From Lama glama (taxonomy: Eukaryota), in the NCBI GenBank assembly GCA_028534125.1, contig CM052816.1, forward strand, positions 60,700,001-60,764,000: a stretch of DNA of 64,000 nucleotides, written 5' to 3'. Below, piece after piece: positions 10,772 to 57,595 of the stretch. The notes below the pieces were generated by a model. The model saw nothing but the letters and a program-made list of their open reading frames with translations. It was not told the origin of the DNA and did no database searches. Positions within the stretch are counted from its first letter, which is position 1. Each line of letters begins with the position of its first letter. Made by a program: the position numbers and the translations under genes.

Positions 10772-10892
10772 TTTATTTATCTATTTCTCTATCTATTTAT
10801 TTATTTATTTATTTTAATGGAGATACGGGGGATTGAACCCAGGACTTCATACATGCTAAGCACACACTCTACCACTGAGCTATACCCTCCCC
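10772..10892 (-). mobile_element. Vic-1-type camelid tRNA-derived SINE
   Basis: Reverse complement GGGGAGGGTATAGCTCAGTGGTAGAG..GTCCTGGGTTCAATCCCC (Pol III A/B boxes) with (TAAA)n tail; TSD agatagtatttta / agacaatatttta. Confidence 0.92.
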
Positions 10893-11699
10893 TAGACAAT
10901 ATTTTAAAAGTCTTATCCAATTATATTGGTTATACACATAGTAAGTAATCAAATTATACAATTTAAAATATGTACTATGGTTATTTGTTAGGAGAAAGGT
11001 AAGTAAGTTGGCCTAACATTTGCTATCTTTTTGTAAATCTGAGTTTTCAAGGTCATTCTTTAAAGGACTCTATTCCATTACTAGGACTTAAACTATAAGC
11101 ATTTAAACTATAAACAGTATCAGTCATCATAGTGTTGGTGGTGGTTATGACTTTGCTGGCCCCCCAAATGATGTCCCATAGGCACTATTAAATGAGAAAT
11201 AAAGATTAGTATGTTTTCCCCTGTAATTATACTTCTTTACATGAAAGTAAAACTCTTGATTAAACCAGACAAGCACCAATACTTATTAATATTACTACAT
11301 AATTGCTCTGTTTAAATGGGACATATAATTAGGATTAACTTAAAGAAATATAAGACTCTTAACACAATTACAGCCTCCTTTCTCATAATCTTTGTTGTTC
11401 ATCATTGCTTAATTTAATCTGGGTTTATCCTGAGTTTAAATAGAATTAATGTACCCTTTACCTTCCCAAAAATTAAACCTCAAGCTCCTGGACCCCTTGC
11501 CTCAAGTGACACACCATTGGCTATTTCTGATTAAGCAATATTCCTATAAACGCTTATTCTTCCACAGTACTCTTAAAGCAATTTTCTACAAATTCTAACT
11601 CTCCTCTTTTTAGAGCATATCCTTGTTCCTTTTCTCTTCTTCTTCTTTTTTTTTTTTTTTTTTCCAGAAATCTTAGCAGAAATTGAGGGAGAGACATGT

Positions 11700-15229: not shown

Positions 15230-15283
<54 letters not shown>

Positions 15284-17880: not shown

Positions 17881-19239
17881 AAAGAATCCACGCCTGCCTT
17901 TTGGAACACAGGAAGGTTTTTACTTGAATGATCATTCAAACAGCCTAATATCCCATGTTTCTGTGTAACATCCTGTTTGTGTCTGTACTGGGATGCAGCA
18001 TGGTCCTGGCCTGAGTTTGGACCAAGCAGTAGGTATACAGATATGACATACTTTATTCTCCAACTTACTAGCTCCGGGGTGTCAGGAAATCATCCTGACC
18101 ACAAGTTGAATAAAACGGGTCCAAACAACATTAGCATCTTATCTCCATGCTGTCAGTATGTGCCCATAATCTTGCGATTGCAATCTGGCAACCTCATGGA
18201 TGAACAGTTCTATTCATCAGAAGATTTCTATTCAGGGATTAAAAATACATGGCATGGCTATCACCACCACCTCCTCTTCTTACAACCCTGGCAGACATCA
18301 TTAATCACACTTTGTCCTGTGAACCCAGATGTGACCTCAAAATCCTTTCCAACACAGCTGTGCTCCAGGCAGCCCCTATCAATCATTTATTTCAACTCAA
18401 GTTGAAACCTATTAGCCATATCTGCTCTGATTACTCTGGCTGGAACATTATTATTCCTTTGACTGGTTCCCAGACTATAGAGTTGAGAAGCACGACCACT
18501 TTCTTTCTCTAATGATCCCTCTTCCCTTAAAACGTCTAGAGCTTATAAAGGTGTTACTGACATAACGGTTAATTCTCCAAGCAGCATGTTTTTAAAAGCC
18601 CCCTACCTCCAGCCCCGAGCCAGAGAAAAGAGCTATCTCTTTTCAGGAATTACAGGAAAAAAAAAAACTGAACCCTATCTTCCTGTGATGACTGCATTTA
18701 TATAACATATAAAATAAGAGAATATTAAGAACAGTCACAAATATGAACAGAAAGTAGAACCCCAAAAGGAACATAACAGACTGGAATGGCCAAGGTTGGC
18801 TTCCATGGAACCAAAGCAATAAAGGAATAATTTTTATCTTACATCCACAAAAGTCATACTTCTTCCAAAAGTTTGTCTGAGGAAGGTATTGTGAAATCCC
18901 AAACAGGGAACCTCTCTTTGTAGGACAGGCAAGATCCAGCCTCAGAGAAATGATCACTTGGTAACCTGTATCAATACGGTAGATTAGTTACGTATTTCTA
19001 ACTCCCAGCCTCAAATCTCAAGAAATGGACACACACACACACAGAGTATCAGCCCTGGAAAAGCAGAATTATGTGTTACCAGCAATCCAGAAATGTTGAA
19101 GAAACCCCCAAAAGAAATGATGTGATCACACTAGTTGAGAAAACCACTGCCGAAATCATGTAGAAAAACATAACTAAGAGAGTGGGAGTGGTTTAAAAGG
19201 AACTCCAGAATGTGAGACTATTAAAACTGTCAGAGTAAG

Positions 19240-28678: not shown

Positions 28679-28810
28679 GGGGAGGGTACAGCTCAGTGGT
28701 AGAGCACGTGATTAGCATGCACAAGGTCCTGGGTTCAATCCCCAGTACCTCCATTATAAACAAACAAAGAAATAAATAAACCTAATTACCTCCCCCTAAA
28801 AAACCTAAAT
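28679..28810 (+). mobile_element. Vic-1-type SINE (long-tail form)
   Basis: ggggagggtacagctcagtggtagagc..ggtcctgggttcaatccccagtacctcc..aaataaacctaattacctcccc. Confidence 0.93.
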
Positions 28811-33259: not shown

Positions 33260-33910
33260 AAAAAAATTCTTAAACTATGCAAACCCTTTGACCCAGAATT
33301 TCTGCTTCTAAAAAAGAGTCTAAAGGAAATAAATAAATATATAAATGAGCATATGTGCCAAGATTAATGATAAAGATGTTCACTGCAGTGTTGCTTATAA
33401 CAGAAGTTTTTTGCAAATAACCTAAATTAAGAGAAATCAGTTAAATATATTAGGGCACATTTGTAACGACCCTTGGATCCACAGGGTTCCTTGGTGGTGC
33501 CTCAGGGGCCATGAGGTGAAGGGGAGGTAGAGCAGGAAGAAAGCCAGGGGGAGCCTGAGTGAGTGGGGCCCTGGATCTCCCATTCCTGCTTTAACCTCAA
33601 AAGCTTGAATTTTATGTTTCATGTTGGGTGGTTCCTTTTGCAGAATTAGTTCTGCTGCCAAAAATAGTTGGAAATGGTCTGAATATTACTGAAACAGGAG
33701 GATATCTATAATGCTTTGTAAAGTGGAAGAAAGCAGACTACAAAACTACTTCAGCATCATCTCATTTTTGTCTCCATATATGTATATGTATATATACATA
33801 AAAATACACACACCAATCATTTATACAGCGATGAGCATGCTATCCTTTTTGGGTGATCGGCAAAAAGTTATTTTTAACTTTAAAAACAGGTTTTTTACAT
33901 GATTTTCAGC
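33260..33910 (+). mobile_element. Ancient L1ME fragments with a small inserted element (~33455-33680)
   Basis: ccctttgacccagaatttctgcttct..aaagatgttcactgcagtgttgcttataac. Confidence 0.55.
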
Positions 33911-39288: not shown

Positions 39289-39788
39289 NNNNNNNNNNNN
39301 NNNNNNNNNNNNNNNNNNNNNNNNNNNNNNNNNNNNNNNNNNNNNNNNNNNNNNNNNNNNNNNNNNNNNNNNNNNNNNNNNNNNNNNNNNNNNNNNNNNN
39401 NNNNNNNNNNNNNNNNNNNNNNNNNNNNNNNNNNNNNNNNNNNNNNNNNNNNNNNNNNNNNNNNNNNNNNNNNNNNNNNNNNNNNNNNNNNNNNNNNNNN
39501 NNNNNNNNNNNNNNNNNNNNNNNNNNNNNNNNNNNNNNNNNNNNNNNNNNNNNNNNNNNNNNNNNNNNNNNNNNNNNNNNNNNNNNNNNNNNNNNNNNNN
39601 NNNNNNNNNNNNNNNNNNNNNNNNNNNNNNNNNNNNNNNNNNNNNNNNNNNNNNNNNNNNNNNNNNNNNNNNNNNNNNNNNNNNNNNNNNNNNNNNNNNN
39701 NNNNNNNNNNNNNNNNNNNNNNNNNNNNNNNNNNNNNNNNNNNNNNNNNNNNNNNNNNNNNNNNNNNNNNNNNNNNNNNNNNNNNNNN
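39289..39788. other. Assembly gap (500 N)
   Basis: Run of N; the round length suggests a placeholder size. Confidence 1.
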
Positions 39789-40089
39789 AAAAAAAATGAC
39801 CCAAGTGAACTTATTTACAAAACAGAAACAGACTCACAGACATAGAAAAAAACTTATGGTTACATGGGTGGGGGAGAAAGGGAGGGTGAGGATACTAACT
39901 ACTATACATAAAATAAATAAACAACAAGGTCCTACAGCATAGAACAAGGAGCTATATTCAATATCTTATAATAGCCTATAATGAAAAAGAATATGAAAAG
40001 GAATATATACATGTATAACGGAATCACTATGCTGTACACCAGAAATTAACACAACATTGTAAACTGACTACATTCAATTAAAAAAAAAA
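39789..40089 (+). mobile_element. Artiodactyl/camelid L1 3' UTR with poly(A)
   Basis: gaacttatttacaaaacagaaacagactcacagacatagaaaa..gaatcactatgctgtacaccagaaattaacacaacattgtaaa. Confidence 0.9.
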
Positions 40090-41425: not shown

Positions 41426-41945
41426 CAGGGACAGATTTGGTTTATTGGGCCTGAAACTGATGCCATTTGGGGGTCTTCAATTAAAAAAGAATGCAATGTT
41501 TACAAATATGAAGTTAGGTAAAACTACAAATTTTCTGAAGCTGATAAACACCATGAGCGTATAAATTCCAGAACAAGACACTGTTGTTATTGTTGTTGTT
41601 GTTTATTAGTGAATTAACTGCCCCAAATGCTTCTATGATATTCTCCTCCTACGCTTTGGCCTCCTTCTCTGATTGGTTTTTGTTTGTTTGGTTGGTGTTT
41701 TTGTTTTGTTTTGGGGGGAGTTAATTAGGTTTATTTATTTATTTTAATGGAAGTACTGGGGATTGAACCCAGGACAACATGCATGCTAAGCATGTGCTCT
41801 ACCACTGAGCTCTACCCTCCCCCTTTGATTGATTTTATAGCATTTTCTGTAGAGAGACTAGGAAGACCTGTCTTTCCTCTGGCATGGGTGTGAGAAATCC
41901 AGTTTTTGTTATGGTTTTAGAAGTTTCTTTCAGTTTCACAACTTT
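41426..41945. mobile_element. hAT-Tip100 (Zaphod-like) terminal fragment
   Basis: caggg..ttattgggcctgaa..atttgggggtc..aaaaaagaat..aattaactgcc..tctttcctctggcatgg..gtttctttcagtttcacaact. Confidence 0.7.
41681..41823 (-). mobile_element. Vic-1-type SINE nested in the hAT fossil
   Basis: gtactggggattgaacccaggac..ctctaccactgagctctaccctcccc; TSD tctgattggtttt / tttgattgatttt. Confidence 0.92.
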
Positions 41946-43689: not shown

Positions 43690-44264
43690 TACGGTAGATT
43701 GTAATTCCTTATATGTACACCCTTTCCAATTGGATTTCGCTGCTCTTCCCATCAAGAGGTGGGTCTGTTTCCTCATTACTTGAATGTAGGCTTGGCCATG
43801 TAACTAGCTCTGAGAAATGGGTCATTCACAACTGTGATGCAAGCAGTAACTTGAAGAGTGCTTACCCACTGGGGTTTACTATTTTTTGCTATTCTCTGGG
43901 AATTCTTTCACCATTATGTGAACAAGCCCAGGCTAGCCTTTTGGAGGATGAGACCTAGTGGATAGAAGCTCTGTCCCAGCCATTTCTAAATCATCTAGAC
44001 ATCTTAGTGACACCAACCTAAATGAGGAGCCTCAGCTAAGCTGGCCTAGATAAGAAGTGCTGGGAGGGGTGGGTATAGCTTAGTGGTAGAGCACATGCTT
44101 AGCATGCAGTAGGTCCTGGATTCAATCCCCAGTATCTCCATCAAAAAAGAATAAAAAAGAAATGCCCACAAAACCCACAGAGTAGCAAGAAATGATAAAT
44201 ATTGATTGCTTTAAGCCACTAAATTTTGGAGTGGTGTGTTACATAGCAAAAGCCAGGTGACACA
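43690..44264 (+). mobile_element. MaLR solo LTR (MLT1F/G-like)
   Basis: tcttcccatcaagaggtgggtct..tgtgaacaagcccaggctagcct..ttgctttaagccactaaattttggagtgg; 5-bp TSD ctgcc (43685-89 / 44265-69). Confidence 0.88.
44062..44156 (+). mobile_element. Vic-1-type SINE (short form) nested in the LTR
   Basis: gggtatagcttagtggtagagcacatgcttagcatgc..gtcctggattcaatccccag; TSD aagaagtgc / aagaaatgc. Confidence 0.9.
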
Positions 44265-44322
44265 CTGCCCTACTTCCTCTATTCATCATCATCACACTCT
44301 GGATTATGAACATCAAACAGCA

Positions 44323-44471
44323 GGGGAGGGTATAGCTCAAGTGGTAGAGCTCATGCTTAACATGCCGAGGTCCTGGGTTCAATCTCCAGTACCTCCTCCA
44401 AAAAATAAATAAATAAGTAAACCTAATTACCTTCCCCCCCAATCAAAGAAAAAAGTAAAAACTAAAGTGAA
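44323..44471 (+). mobile_element. Vic-1-type SINE (long-tail form)
   Basis: ggggagggtatagctcaagtggtagagc..; 19-bp TSD tatgaacatcaaacagcag (44305-44323) / tatgaacatcaaacggcag (44472-44490). Confidence 0.95.
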
Positions 44472-46252: not shown

Positions 46253-46831
46253 TGCATTAATTGTCTATTGCTGAGTAACAAGTTACCGCCAAATTTAGCA
46301 GCTTGAAAAATGCACATTTATTACCTCACAGTTTTTATAATTCAGGAAGCCAGGCATGGTTTAACTATTATGAAATTGTCACATATTATCAATATTAGTA
46401 ATGATCCTCTAGCTCAGGTCTCTCCCAGGGCTGCAGTTGATGTGTTGGCCAGTGACATGGTTTCATCTGAATGCTCAACTGAAAAAGACTCCACCTCTAA
46501 GCTCACTCATGTGGTCGCTGGCAGGACTCAGTTCCCTGTGGGCAGTGGGACTGCGGGCCTCCATTACTTTCTGACTATTGGCTAGCAGCTGCTCTCAGTT
46601 CCTTGCCATGCAGGAAGGAACTGCATGGCAGGGTGCTTCATCAAACAAGCAAGAGAGAGAGTCTTCTATCATGATGGAAGTCAGTGTATTCTGTAACATT
46701 CTGTAATCATAGAAGCGACATCCTCTCACACTTGCCTTATATTTGTTAGTTACTAGATCCAGCCCTGGCTCAAAATATGAATACCAGAGGGTGGGGATCA
46801 TCGAGGGCCATCTTAGATGCTTCCTACTACA
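46253..46831 (-). mobile_element. MaLR solo LTR (MLT1F-like)
   Basis: tctattgctgagtaacaagttacc..aagctcactcatgtggtcgctggcagg..gggccatcttaga; TSD cagac / cagat. Confidence 0.87.
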
Positions 46832-46929
46832 CAGATAGCAAGTGTCAATGGTTTCTAACTGAAGGGTTACAAACAAAATTGGATGGACAACTATACTTAC
46901 CAGCTTACTGTCAGCAGGCAGTTCTAGGC

Positions 46930-48520
46930 TGCAGTGCATGAAATGGGAAATCAACCAGAGTTCAGTGGTTTCTATGAAGTGAAGATACAGAGAGGCCAAG
47001 GCAGTAAGAATTAATGAGTAAGAGTACTAGTTGCAGAGAGAAAGCTCAGGAAATGTATTGAGGGGTCCCCTTGAGTCTCTGGCTGAGTACTCATCCGTGT
47101 ATGTCTGAGTAGGAATCACCTGAATACACAGAAATAACCATCAGGAAGGAGTAATGAGAAAAAATTCCAGAATTCACAGAGGGCAAGAGTGGAAGTGACC
47201 ATAATCCACAAGACATAGAGTGGAAGCCCTAGATATTCCTCAGCCTACACTAAAGGCTGCTCTGGACTTGTTCTAACAAAATTTAAAAGGAAGTCTCTAA
47301 AGTTTCAACTAATTCCGAGTAAATTAAATGTGTGCCAGAGCAAACCCAACCTTATTTGAAAAAACAGTACAAAATCCAACAATCAATAATGTAATATTCA
47401 CAACAGTTAACATTTAATAACAAATTAGTAGGCATGCAAAGAAGTAGGAAATAAGGCCTAAAACCAGGAGAGAACTCAATCAAAAGAAATAGATCTAGAA
47501 GACAGAGAGAATGGAACTAGCAGAAAAGAATCTAAAAAATAGTTAGAACATTAGCATATTATAAATATGATCCAAATGTTTAAGCAGGTAAAGGAAAATA
47601 TGACCATGATTTAGAGAAAAATGGAAGATACGAAAAAGACCTGAATGAATGACTAAAGGAAAAAAATCCAACATGTGAAATGAAAAATACACTGTTTGGG
47701 ATTAATAGAAGACTAGATATTGAAATGTTCAATGACTATGAAGGTACAATGATAACAATATCCAAAATGAAACAGAAAAGCAACTGAAAAAAATATGAAG
47801 AGAGCAGCTGTGACCTGGGGGGCAATGTCAGGTGGGCCCATATACATGCAATTGGTATCTCAGAAAAAAAGAGGGGGAAGGAAGAAAAAATATTTATGAA
47901 AATAATGGTCAAAATTTTCCAAATTTGATGAAATCTATAGACTCACAGATACAAGAAACTCAATGAATTTGAGCAGAATAAGCATTAAAAAACACATTAA
48001 ATGACTAAAGCTGGTGATAAAGAGAAAAAAATGAAAGCAGTCACAAGAAGATAGTGTATCCAATAAACAAGCTTCTTGTCAGAAACCATGCAAGTCAGAA
48101 GATGATGGAAAGTCATCTTTAAAGCATGAAAAGAATAAAATTACCAACCAAAATTCTTTACCCATAAAAACTACTTTCAAATTTGAAGGCAAACTAAAGA
48201 TATTTCAGGCAAACCAAATTTATTGCTGGCCTCCATGAATTCTGAGCGCTGTGAAGGCAGTTCTTTAGGCAGAAGGAAAGTGATATCTGCAGGCAGATGG
48301 AAATGCATAAAGGAAGAAAGAGAACCAGACACGGTGAATATGTGACTAGGAATGACTTCTTTCCCTTTCAAAAAATCTTTTTTAAAAGTAATTTTTAAAT
48401 AAAAATAATAAAAATGTATTCTGAAAATGCAAAATATAACATAGAGAGAAGTAGAATTTGTAACAATATCACAAAAGATGAGCAGGTAGAAATGAAAGTA
48501 CCAGCCGGAAGGTTCTTGCA
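46930..48520 (+). mobile_element. Old L1 (L1MC/MD-type) 5' UTR and ORF1 region, decayed; its 5' tip lies at ~46150-46252 before the LTR
   Basis: gaaatgaaaaatacactg..ggattaatagaagactaga..aaataatggtcaaaattttccaaatttgatgaaa..cagaaaccatgcaagtcagaaga. Confidence 0.8.
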
Positions 48521-48584
48521 CCAGGTGCTGATCTAAGTGTAACTTCTGAGGTGAGAGTTCTTCTTCATCCAGTTCTACCATAAC

Positions 48585-49285
48585 TAGAAGGATAAGGAAA
48601 AAATGGTAATGCTGTTAAGGGTTTGAGTCCCAGAGAACCCACCGGAAGAAGGGAGGCTGGGAGGCCCCCAGGCCTCAGAAATAACAGGGTAGTGGAGAAT
48701 TTGGATGAAGGATGCTGCAATTGCCACCTCTAGCTTGATTTCCCCCCAGTGGTGGCCTAGATCAATAGGTTTCTCACAATTTAAAAAATGAATCATTTTT
48801 ATCACGTACCTACGAAAGTGGCCATAACTTTTGTTTATGTAAAACTAGCTTTAAAATAAGAATGAACCCCAAATAAACATGAACCAGATTTGCAGTCATT
48901 AATTTAATCCACTGGCAATTTTACTTAACTGTGAACTGAGTCTGTAAGGATACACCTAACGGCTTCTTTGAATTCATATATCAAAAAAGTAATTACCAAA
49001 AACAAAATTCTGCAACATTACCCTATTCCTCAAACTTGATGAGATGTGGCTGGGATGCTTTCCCACGTCACAGGGTGCAGACTCAGCAGAACAAGCCTGG
49101 GGAGTTCAGGAGTCACAGGCTTAGGAGGCTCCCCTGCTCAGGGACCAGGTGATGAGACCACATCCAGCAGGAGCAGGGAGTCACATTTTTGGTCCAGGCT
49201 TGAAAAGAAGAGCCTGGGGGATATATATATATATATATGGGACTCAAACCCTTAACAGCATTACCATTTTTTCCTTATCCTTCTA
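48585..49285. repeat. Perfect 48-bp inverted repeat pair (48585-48632 / 49238-49285)
   Basis: tagaaggataaggaaaaaatggtaatgctgttaagggtttgagtccca and its exact reverse complement. Confidence 0.97.
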
Positions 49286-49600
49286 TATATATATATATAT
49301 ATATATAGTCTATAAGGACAGTTATGAACAAATTAAGGAGACTGAAATTAGGATCTATGAGGGAAGCTTTAAAAAGTGTTGGAGGTAATTTTGCATGAAA
49401 AAGAAAAAGATAAAGGGTGACTAGCTGTCTTCAAATAAATTAAGAGTAATTACCAATAGATAATTAACAGTATTGCTCATTCCTACTATAGAAGATAGAA
49501 ACAAGAAGAAATGAGTTCAAATTTCAACAGTGAAGTTTGGTCACTGAAAGTAGAATTTATTGACCAGAAGGGTAATTAAGCACAGAGAAAAATCTAGGTT
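49140..49600 (+). mobile_element. L3/CR1 fragment
   Basis: agaccacatcc..; tctatgagggaagc..tagctgtcttcaaata..aacaagaagaaatgagttcaaatt resemble the CR1 3' region. Confidence 0.5.
49221..49307. repeat. (AT)9 and (TA)12 microsatellite split by the 48-bp insert
   Basis: Directly visible. Confidence 0.95.
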
Positions 49601-50252
49601 CCCAAAACATTTCAAGTGAAGCTAGGCTTTCCTGACAGCAGAACATCTGGTGATACTGAAAATTTCATCCAGCTGACCTTTGAAAGTCATGTGGGTAAAA
49701 CATCTGTAAGATAACTGGAATTTTTTAATGGATTAATTGAACTGAGTAAATGTTTTGTGGCTTTGGGGCAATTTCACCTAAATAATGAAAACAAAGGAGC
49801 ATATTCTGTCTGACCTTTGAGAGGAATAATTTATATTACATAATTAGAATAATACCCTCCATCTGGCCATGGACCTGCTCCTGTGGGCTCATACACACAG
49901 CAGACACAGCGCTACCTAACCCTCCAAGTGTCTTCAGTGAGATTATAGTGAGAGTTACTTAAACACTCCATGTCCTGACTCCCCAGTGATTCTCTGCTCT
50001 CTACCACCTATGAACCAAGCCGTCCAGAAGCTTATAAAAACCTCAACAAACTGATAATTTTTTAAAACAGAGACTGAAGGTACTGAGATTTCTCATCATG
50101 TTCCAAACATGTTATCTTCTTGGATTCAGGCAAGAAAGGCCTTTACTGACTAATGTTTTAGAGCATGTAAAAACTAAGATGAAGTGAAGCTGGAGGACTG
50201 TCATGCATCCAGAAGCTGTTTTTCCAGAAATCTAGTCACCAAATGATAAAGG

Positions 50253-50437
50253 CAGGGGTTCTCCAAGTGTGTTTCCAGATCAGCATCAGCATCCCCTGGG
50301 AACTTGTTGGAAATGCAAATTTTGGGGTTCCACTCAAGACCTATTAAATCAGAAACTCTGTAGGTAGAACCCAGTAATCTGTGGTTTAATAAGCCCTCTA
50401 GGTGACAGATACACATGAAGGTCTGACAACCTCTGGA
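50253..50437. mobile_element. MER5A
   Basis: caggggttctccaagtgtg..cagcatcagcatcccctgggaacttgttggaaatgcaaatt..aatctgtggtttaataagccctc. Confidence 0.9.
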
Positions 50438-51571
50438 TTAAAGGAGTGATTATTCCCAGCTGAGCCCACACTGGGTTTCAGAATCTGGCTGCTTGTGTAA
50501 CTGGTCTTTACAGGTCTTTACAGGTCTCTCTCTCTCTATGAACTGAGACACATAGGAGTTTCAGGTTTTCTAGATGAAGAAAATAGACACAGAAGATGGG
50601 AACACAGCAAGACGCCTGGATATTCAACTTTATAGTGTATATTAAATATCTACTGATTTTTTAAAATAGCAGATTTACACATAATAGAATCCATAATAAT
50701 TTGTTGGTTATCTAATTCAGCTTAGTCCTTCTGCCTAATGCACTGGTTTTGATCCCCAAAGAAATGGGGAGAGTCAGAAGCTGAAAGATGGATGCTCAGT
50801 GAAATAAAATCAAACCAAACCAGTCATGGGGCTTAGAGCATAAGCAACTGCTCCAGCGCCCAGGAAGAAAGGTGGAGATCAGCCCTGGACCACTTTGGAG
50901 CCTGGGCAGTTGAGGGGCTTAAAGCAGCTCCAAGGAAAAGCCAGTTGTGCCAAGTTCAAGAGTTCTCTTCCGAAACAGCAGCAGTAGAACCAATGGTAGG
51001 AAAACCGGAGAAACCTAGAGAAAGACTGAAATACTACAGCTGCTGTGATCTGAACGCCAACAGGACCATATCTCTGTACCCACAGGCTGGTCAGGCCTGG
51101 GACAGTCATGTTAAAAATATAATATACGGCAACACTAAACCCAACTGGGAGAAGTGAAAAAGCACGTTACCGACATTCCCCTCAGGGTGTTACAGAGACA
51201 GTAATCTGAAGTTCTGGCAAGCTTGGTCTAGGTGCTTCGGATTCCAAGCAGTGATGTCAGGCTCAGTGGCCAGCTAGCTGTCTGTTGATGTCAAGGGCTT
51301 CAGAATTATGCACCCCGAGAAAAATCAATTCCTATAAAGTTTTTTATACAGAGTAAGCTGCAGTAGGGTCTATATATACGATCAGTAGAACAGAGAATAT
51401 TAAAGCAGAGAGGCTTCAGTTCAGTCCTGAACCAGTGGTCGACACATATTTATTGCATTTATAATGTGCTCCCTTAACTCATTCTAGAAATACTTCCTAA
51501 GTGCCTCTTTGCTTCAGGAATGGTGCTGGACACTGAGAGCCACTGAAATACAACAGACTGTGGACAGGTGC

Positions 51572-56399: not shown

Positions 56400-56846
56400 T
56401 AGCAATAAAAAAAGAATGAAATAATGCCATTTGCAGCAACATAGATGAACCTAGAGATTATCATACTAAGTGAAATTAAGTCAGAGAAAAACAAATGTAT
56501 GATATCATTTATATGTGGAATCTAAAAAAAAAAATGACACAAATGAAGCAGAAACAGACTCACAGACACAGAAAACAAACCTATGGTTACCAGGGAGGAA
56601 AGGTGGGGAGAGGTAAATTAGGATTTTGAGATTTTCAGATACAAACTACTATATATAAAATAGATAAACAACAAGTCCCTACTGTATAGCACAGGGAACT
56701 AGAATCAATAGCTTGTAAATACCTATAATGAAAAAGAATATTAAAAATATATATATATGCATAACTGAATCACTATGTTGTACACCAGAAACTAACATGA
56801 CATTGTAAATCAACTATACTTCAATTTAAAAATATAAGAAAAAAAA
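56400..56846 (+). mobile_element. Artiodactyl/camelid L1 3' end
   Basis: aaaagaatgaaataatgccatttgcagcaacat..gagattatcatactaagtga..aactgaatcactatgttgtacaccagaaactaac..tatacttcaat. Confidence 0.93.
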
Positions 56847-56959: not shown

Positions 56960-57595
56960 GGAAAACAAATGCTTGTTTGCAAAACACCTGGTGATTTGAT
57001 TGACTGCAAGTTCAGAATAAGCCAAATGACATTGTTATGAGACTACTTTTTAAAAAACTTATGAAATCAGACTTTATTAATGGAAATACAATCCAGATCC
57101 AGCAGAAACATAAGTTTCAGCATACTGTGCATTAATCTGACCACATCTGGAATATTCTTTTTGGCTCTGGATGACACATTTTAGAAAAGACATGGATAGA
57201 CTACAGTAAAAGAAGTCAACTAGAAGATCTGGAAAGATCCGAAAAGAACAATACATGACAAATGGTTTTAGAAGCTTTGCAATTCTAACACAGAAAAGAT
57301 GAGACTCAGAGTGGGTGCATCTGAAGGATTGTTACTATGAAAATTGTCTCAGGTTTTTTTATAAGTTTAGAGAGCAGAATTAGAATCAAAAGATAGAAAC
57401 TTCAGCATAGCAGTTTCCTGGCTAAAATTAAGGACAAATTTTCTAATGAGAACTGGCCAATAATGCAATGAACTATTTCAAAAGGTAGTGAACTTCTCAT
57501 TGTGGAAAGTATTTACATAAAGACAAGGTGCTGACATCTGTTGGGAGATTGTTCTGAATGGTACCTAAAGACCCACTGAATCCTTAGATGCTATG
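56960..57595 (+). mobile_element. L3/CR1 LINE fragment
   Basis: tgactgcaagttcagaataagcca..tctgaccacatctggaatatt..cacattttagaaaagacatggatagact..aggtagtgaacttctcattgtggaaagtatt. Confidence 0.7.

Follow-up and report, generated by a model that had tools for sequence, protein, structure and literature searches.

The closest described counterparts of the locus analysed here are templated insertions of several kinds. MMB-TI events (Osia et al. 2021, PMC8421209) are inverted copies of nearby sequence, at least 25 bp long and joined through short microhomology, and they occur among germline variants: two normal individuals are given as carrying 10 and 11 classical events, and junctions with at least 1 bp of microhomology made up 138 of 155 and 135 of 148 in two individuals. 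That survey looked no further than 100 bp for templates and excluded microsatellites, the 100-bp range being a limit of the software search and not of the mechanism. The four-point template-switch model (Loytynoja and Goldman 2017, PMC5453318) describes a switch and return that leaves a reversed middle fragment and a new perfect inverted repeat; it is a short-range model and was applied to sequence outside repeat and low-complexity masks. The inverse-repeat class of Pol theta TINS (Carvajal-Garcia et al. 2020, PMC7165422) comprises reverse-complement insertions from AT-rich templates with very short priming homology; they span 3–30 bp, with a template typically within 30 bp and a first tract rarely longer than 10 bp. 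Class 2 TSIPs (Onozawa and Aplan 2016, PMC5110952) are germline patches without a poly(A) tail or clear target duplication, copied from templates in distant regions.

Cruciform formation and breakage are known properties of TA tracts. In a Nature 2026 report on MMEJ at TA repeats of ecDNA (PMC13645644), small templated duplications, less than 5 kb in size, arise near the TA tract; TA repeats account for 11 of 20 break peaks on ecDNA, with no such enrichment on linear chromosomal DNA, and FANCM loss on cancer ecDNA leads to the small templated duplications, whose formation requires Pol theta. For FRA16D Flex1, chromosomal fragility is cited at 23 or 34 units (PMC11797062).

We analysed one stretch of 64,000 nucleotides (64 kb) from Lama glama, called the window throughout, in which a perfect inverted copy of nearby sequence lies inside a TA microsatellite. 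It resembles MMB-TI products in its inverted orientation, length and short junction homology, whereas its template is 605 nt away and the insertion sits in a microsatellite. It likewise has the reversed fragment and new perfect inverted repeat of the four-point model, but at mid-range and in a TA tract within a probable LINE fossil. With TINS it shares reverse-complement orientation, AT-richness of the template and very short homology for priming. Unlike TINS, it consists of one 45–48 nt tract drawn from 605 nt away and so lacks two defining TINS features, despite which it could work in the same way. Like class 2 TSIPs, it has neither a poly(A) tail nor a clear target duplication, but a perfect local template exists here. 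The TA tract as a presumed break site recalls the ecDNA events, which are, however, somatic, on circular DNA and tied to FANCM loss. At about 20 units, the tract is slightly below the fragile lengths of FRA16D Flex1. The features are as follows.

48585 to 48632, plus strand: donor (template) copy, 48 nt in a non-TA context; exact inverted match, with flanks free of CR1-like signal.
48633 to 49237, no strand: spacer of 605 nt between the arms; the longest open reading frame overlapping the finding is 79 aa.
49149 to 49388: open frame of 79 codons crossing both TA runs and the insert.
49150 to 49220, plus strand: probable upstream part of the CR1-type element listed at 49326, reaching to the TA run; profile residues 31–53, weak.
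49214 to 49218, plus strand: CTGGG, part of the outer left flank and recurring in reverse at the inner edge of the donor (48629–48633).
49221 to 49238, no strand: left TA run, (AT)9, a weak hairpin.
49238 to 49285, minus strand: inserted inverted copy, 45 nt unique (49239–49283) plus the T and TA common to the runs.
49284 to 49307, no strand: right TA run, (TA)12, which keeps the phase of the left run once the insert is discounted.
49306 to 49309, plus strand: TAGT, marking the outer right edge and recurring in reverse at the outer edge of the donor (48583–48586).
49326 to 49422, plus strand: decayed sequence apparently coding for a CR1-type RT C-terminus, right of the tract; profile residues 63–94.
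57092 to 57316, plus strand: better-kept LINE fossil taken to be CR1-type; HMMER matches it to 17 RT-tail proteins (E up to 0.001).

The sequence, orientation and distance of the two copies, the junction bases and the phase of the tract can all be read directly from the assembled letters. Positions 49238–49285 are the exact reverse complement of 48585–48632 (48/48), with no further exact base on either side, and the arms are separated by 605 nt, a gap that is unchanged when they are extended to 53 nt at 96% identity. A sequence-only reading had described a perfect 48-bp inverted copy between TA runs, about 600 bp from its source, and it was right about the identity, the distance and the presence of both runs. 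No other non-simple exact repeat in the 64-kb window is as long (the runner-up, 27 nt, joins two SINE copies), and only about 1e-19 inverted matches of 48 nt would be expected by chance in 64 kb. A 23-nt core gave two matches in the window at up to three mismatches, against none in 100 shuffles; neither this search nor sensitive blastn and nhmmer revealed a further copy of the 48-mer within the 64-kb window. An Rfam scan of 48400–49800 with E up to 1 returned no matches, and no look-alike of the inverted pair appeared in the other genomes scanned.

Taken as a whole, the window consists of non-coding mammalian DNA in which old repeats abound. One short SINE family is present in five copies (10794–10893, 28679–28801, 41698–41836, 44065–44163 and 44309–44454), whose listed pairs are 79–88% alike; two of the copies share an orientation and are separated by 160 nt. 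Directly after a gap of exactly 500 N at 39289–39788 comes a LINE 3' end (39789–40088) that carries an A tail and is 77% like 56546–56832. At 50503–50527, a perfect 10-nt tandem repeat of 2.5 copies beside a short TC run resembles a young slippage duplication, and perfect 16-nt palindromes at 17924–17939 and 33785–33800 probably arose by chance or by local slippage.

When 46 or 48 nt of insert are left out of account, the two TA runs join into a single in-phase tract, A(TA)20 or A(TA)19, respectively. The left junction has 1 nt of microhomology (T49238) and the right junction 2 nt (TA at 49284–49285), that is, at least 1 bp at both; the T and TA overlaps previously noted are therefore present, each common to insert and run. 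Homology of 1–2 nt is nevertheless too short to exceed chance within a TA tract. The stretch 49215–49245 folds as a weak hairpin of −1.5 kcal/mol (DNA parameters). The 79-codon frame that spans the runs and the insert is most likely a product of chance, because the TA runs contain no stop in that frame. Elsewhere in the window, an uninterrupted (TA)21 at 15235–15276, about as long as both runs of the finding combined, offers a usable internal control.

Perfect identity also bounds the age of the event. With 46 identical non-TA bases, and assuming 3e-9 to 1e-9 changes per site per year, the 95% upper bound is roughly 11–33 Myr, and the event is very likely younger than the SINE copies of the window, which are mostly 79–88% alike. 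The earlier description of the event as very recent goes beyond what 48/48 identity can prove, as identity limits the age only to that bound.

To decide which copy is new, we looked for continuity of coding sequence across the flanks. The better-kept LINE fossil at about 57090–57320 served as the query for RT-tail proteins, on which the flank-continuity test was then based. A word-based protein search with the copy at 57092–57316 gave no matches, and HMMER gave the 17 proteins; Pfam RVT_1 was present in two of the eight of these that were scanned, and we take the fossil and its 17 matches to be CR1-type. A nucleotide-level profile built from five of the 17 proteins recovered the control LINE copy at z 20.7. 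Right of the tract, the same profile scored z 3.9 (3 of 500 shuffles as high) and, with another background, z 3.7 (2 of 500). Left of the tract, an anchored test gave z 2.0, with 42 of 1,000 shuffles and 219 of 3,246 stretches of the window scoring equally high, for a test chosen only after the translations had been read; unanchored, the left flank was not significant (124 of 500 shuffles reach its score). The register across the tract runs from residue 53, ending at 49220, to residues 63–94, starting at 49326. The claim that CR1-like sequence lies on both sides of the right copy thus holds on the right and is weak on the left.

The CR1 signal appeared only in the nucleotide-level profile, and other alignment and HMM approaches were without significant signal. 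DNA alignment of the flanks with the second CR1 copy of the window showed no significant likeness (best z 1.7). In hmmsearch, the frames of the right flank ranked first after the control, yet at E 0.35–1 (0.35–0.44 for 49326–49422), and frameshift-aware, codon-level protein alignment, from which the repetitive row P0004 was left out, yielded signal in neither flank. On profile scores that lend modest support, the right copy probably interrupts an old CR1-type element; if its frame is indeed interrupted there, the right copy is the insertion. Inversion of the spacer was considered as well and rejected, as the reversed inner flank does not fit (z −1.4, 973 of 1,000 shuffles as high). Further along, 49638–49732 is weakly like 56979–57084 (z 1.7), possibly an upstream CR1-type piece placed after the first one.

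At its edges the donor is similar to the outer flanks of the tract. The shared motifs, CTGGG and TAGT, are separated by 47 nt in the donor and by 44–46 nt in the empty site, and among donor candidates that start with T and end with TA, 5 of 2,018 match equally well in 48000–51300 and 48 of 40,952 across the window, a rarity that is overstated because the thresholds were set after the match had been seen. Should the likeness be real, the end may have stayed anchored by the flank while the TA portion formed a loop, or a TA-less allele may exist; anchoring of this kind would explain priming on one base.

Sequencing runs were compared with the locus through shared words. The interval 46800–51200 is contained in 19 of 24 listed runs (8 studies, 4 organism labels) with word shares of 0.95–0.98, the 5 remaining rows, with shares of 0.00–0.04, being ignored. 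The best 8 runs hold 0.98 of 456 words (7–11 absent), and none of the listed runs is higher. By expectation, 5.9 words belong to the insert only, 10.3 touch the TA runs or junctions (close to the number absent), and 3.2 are lost per SNP. The ceiling of 0.98 fits absence of the insert, as a private or rare allele or an artefact, and also fits TA drop-out or length variation, or three SNPs. According to its description (bioRxiv 10.1101/2024.07.30.605881), Logan discards only isolated contigs shorter than 150 bp and keeps short ones with connections in the graph, so that true junction words are somewhat less likely to have been lost. Metagenome contigs were scanned twice with exact patterns for stray host DNA; both scans gave 0 matches and are uninformative about the locus.

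Could the insert be an artefact, with a chimeric molecule, gap filling or polishing having written a reversed nearby piece into a low-coverage TA consensus? The identity between the arms is perfect, the donor lies within a typical library insert size, the window comes from a scaffolded assembly with a 500-N gap, and no listed run exceeds 0.98, including the 9 flagged as possible sources. Given that Logan retains connected contigs, real junction words need not vanish. The word ceiling, however, also fits three SNPs or drop-out and length variation of the TA tract, and an artefact would need two independent junctions 48 nt apart with 1–2 nt of overlap. The same assembly spanned a plain (TA)21 at 15235–15276, so a tract of such length forces no gap fill. 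Graph assemblers are not known to build double junctions of this kind without supporting reads. On balance we regard an artefact as unlikely, at something over one chance in five.

Three further explanations were weighed. In one, synthesis copied a different genomic instance of the 48-mer, in a dispersed repeat or at a distant locus as for class 2 TSIPs, and the neighbouring copy merely belongs to the same family; the window holds no third copy (at up to three mismatches on the core, or by sensitive blastn and nhmmer), and its repeat copies are 66–88% identical, so that 48/48 at 86% identity has a probability of about 7e-4; we consider this origin very improbable. The perfect inverted arms are each bordered on the outside by TA, which has suggested instead a MITE of 697 bp (48587–49283) whose terminal inverted repeats would be 46 bp long and whose target duplications would be TA, although the right-hand TA belongs to the microsatellite. 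Against it, the CR1-type frame of the right-hand side finds no continuation in the flank left of the donor (z −0.5, 657 of 1,000 shuffles, in what is a weak test), whereas it finds a weak one in the inner sequence; a TA run adjoins the inner end of the right arm; a transposase-sized open reading frame is absent, the longest being 79 aa; and only two arms occur within the window, with no look-alike among the other genomes scanned. The GAAG ends are unlike the CAG-type ends of Tc1/mariner, and we know of no young DNA transposons in camelids. The sequence-only reading had judged a MITE less likely, a view borne out by the outer-left flank, the TA run at the inner arm end and the lack of a transposase-sized frame, and we consider it the remotest of the origins weighed here. 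A history in two steps or two alleles, in which a clean switch through the CTGGG and TAGT anchors replaced the TA tract to give a TA-less allele and the present sequence is a recombinant or a consensus mixture of the two, would account for donor edges that match the outer flanks at near-equal spacing. The thresholds of that match were fixed post hoc, though, the full TA length is retained on both sides, a TA-less allele was never seen and a single switch needs fewer steps; we give this history only a slight chance.

The best explanation, to which we assign a probability of roughly 0.68, is that the insertion is real and heritable and that one switch and return of DNA synthesis templated it into a TA tract about 20 units long. 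That a locally templated inverted insertion into the tract is the best reading had been proposed before, and it agrees with an inverted 48/48 match unique in the window and with TA runs that rejoin in phase. The tract, within its old CR1-type LINE fossil, would have stalled or broken; the stall or break, the strand used and the germline origin are what we infer from the arrangement of the letters. Most simply, the event was a fold-back of the plus strand. Having passed the left flank and nine AT units, the plus-strand 3' end (...ATAT) would have folded back about 600 nt upstream or, alternatively, crossed to the equivalent template at the fork. Priming at A48632 on 1 nt of exact homology would then have been followed by 47 nt copied in reverse, and the copy, released at TA, would have re-annealed in the other half of the tract. 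Fold-back appears simpler than the mirror route because, in a break model, it would call for resection over about 650 nt but could do without strand invasion.

As to the machinery behind this switch-and-return insertion, a tract of 45–48 nt and a distance of 605 nt exceed typical Pol theta insertions, so replicative switching of the FoSTeS/MMBIR type fits at least equally well. We lean towards such switching as the source, and hold Pol theta end joining to be a substantial, less favoured possibility. An earlier attribution to Pol theta does not stand as written, given 45–48 nt from 605 nt here against the 3–30 bp and templates typically within 30 bp of TINS. The earlier label of a germline scar likewise goes further than the word shares allow, no listed run exceeding 0.98.

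The insertion implies no function. It would be a further instance of already known templated-insertion events and, as a single, probably neutral scar, of little importance; if it were an artefact, it would point to a particular kind of error that arises at TA tracts. The fragility of such tracts is established for yeast, cancer cells and ecDNA. A broader and rather doubtful proposal is that long TA tracts are germline landing sites in mammals for a distinct class of mid-range (0.5–2 kb) inverted templated insertions, in which a TA hairpin loops out and the donor is picked by its likeness to the outer flanks. Surveys would miss such a class because microsatellites are masked and the search extends only about 100 bp. 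The literature searched, which largely lay outside subscription journals and so gives a weak negative, contained no account of a class of mid-range inverted insertions into germline TA tracts. A polymorphic case confirmed by reads would display the repair products of TA tracts in the mammalian germ line, and would fall in the range of size and distance that template-switch surveys have left out.
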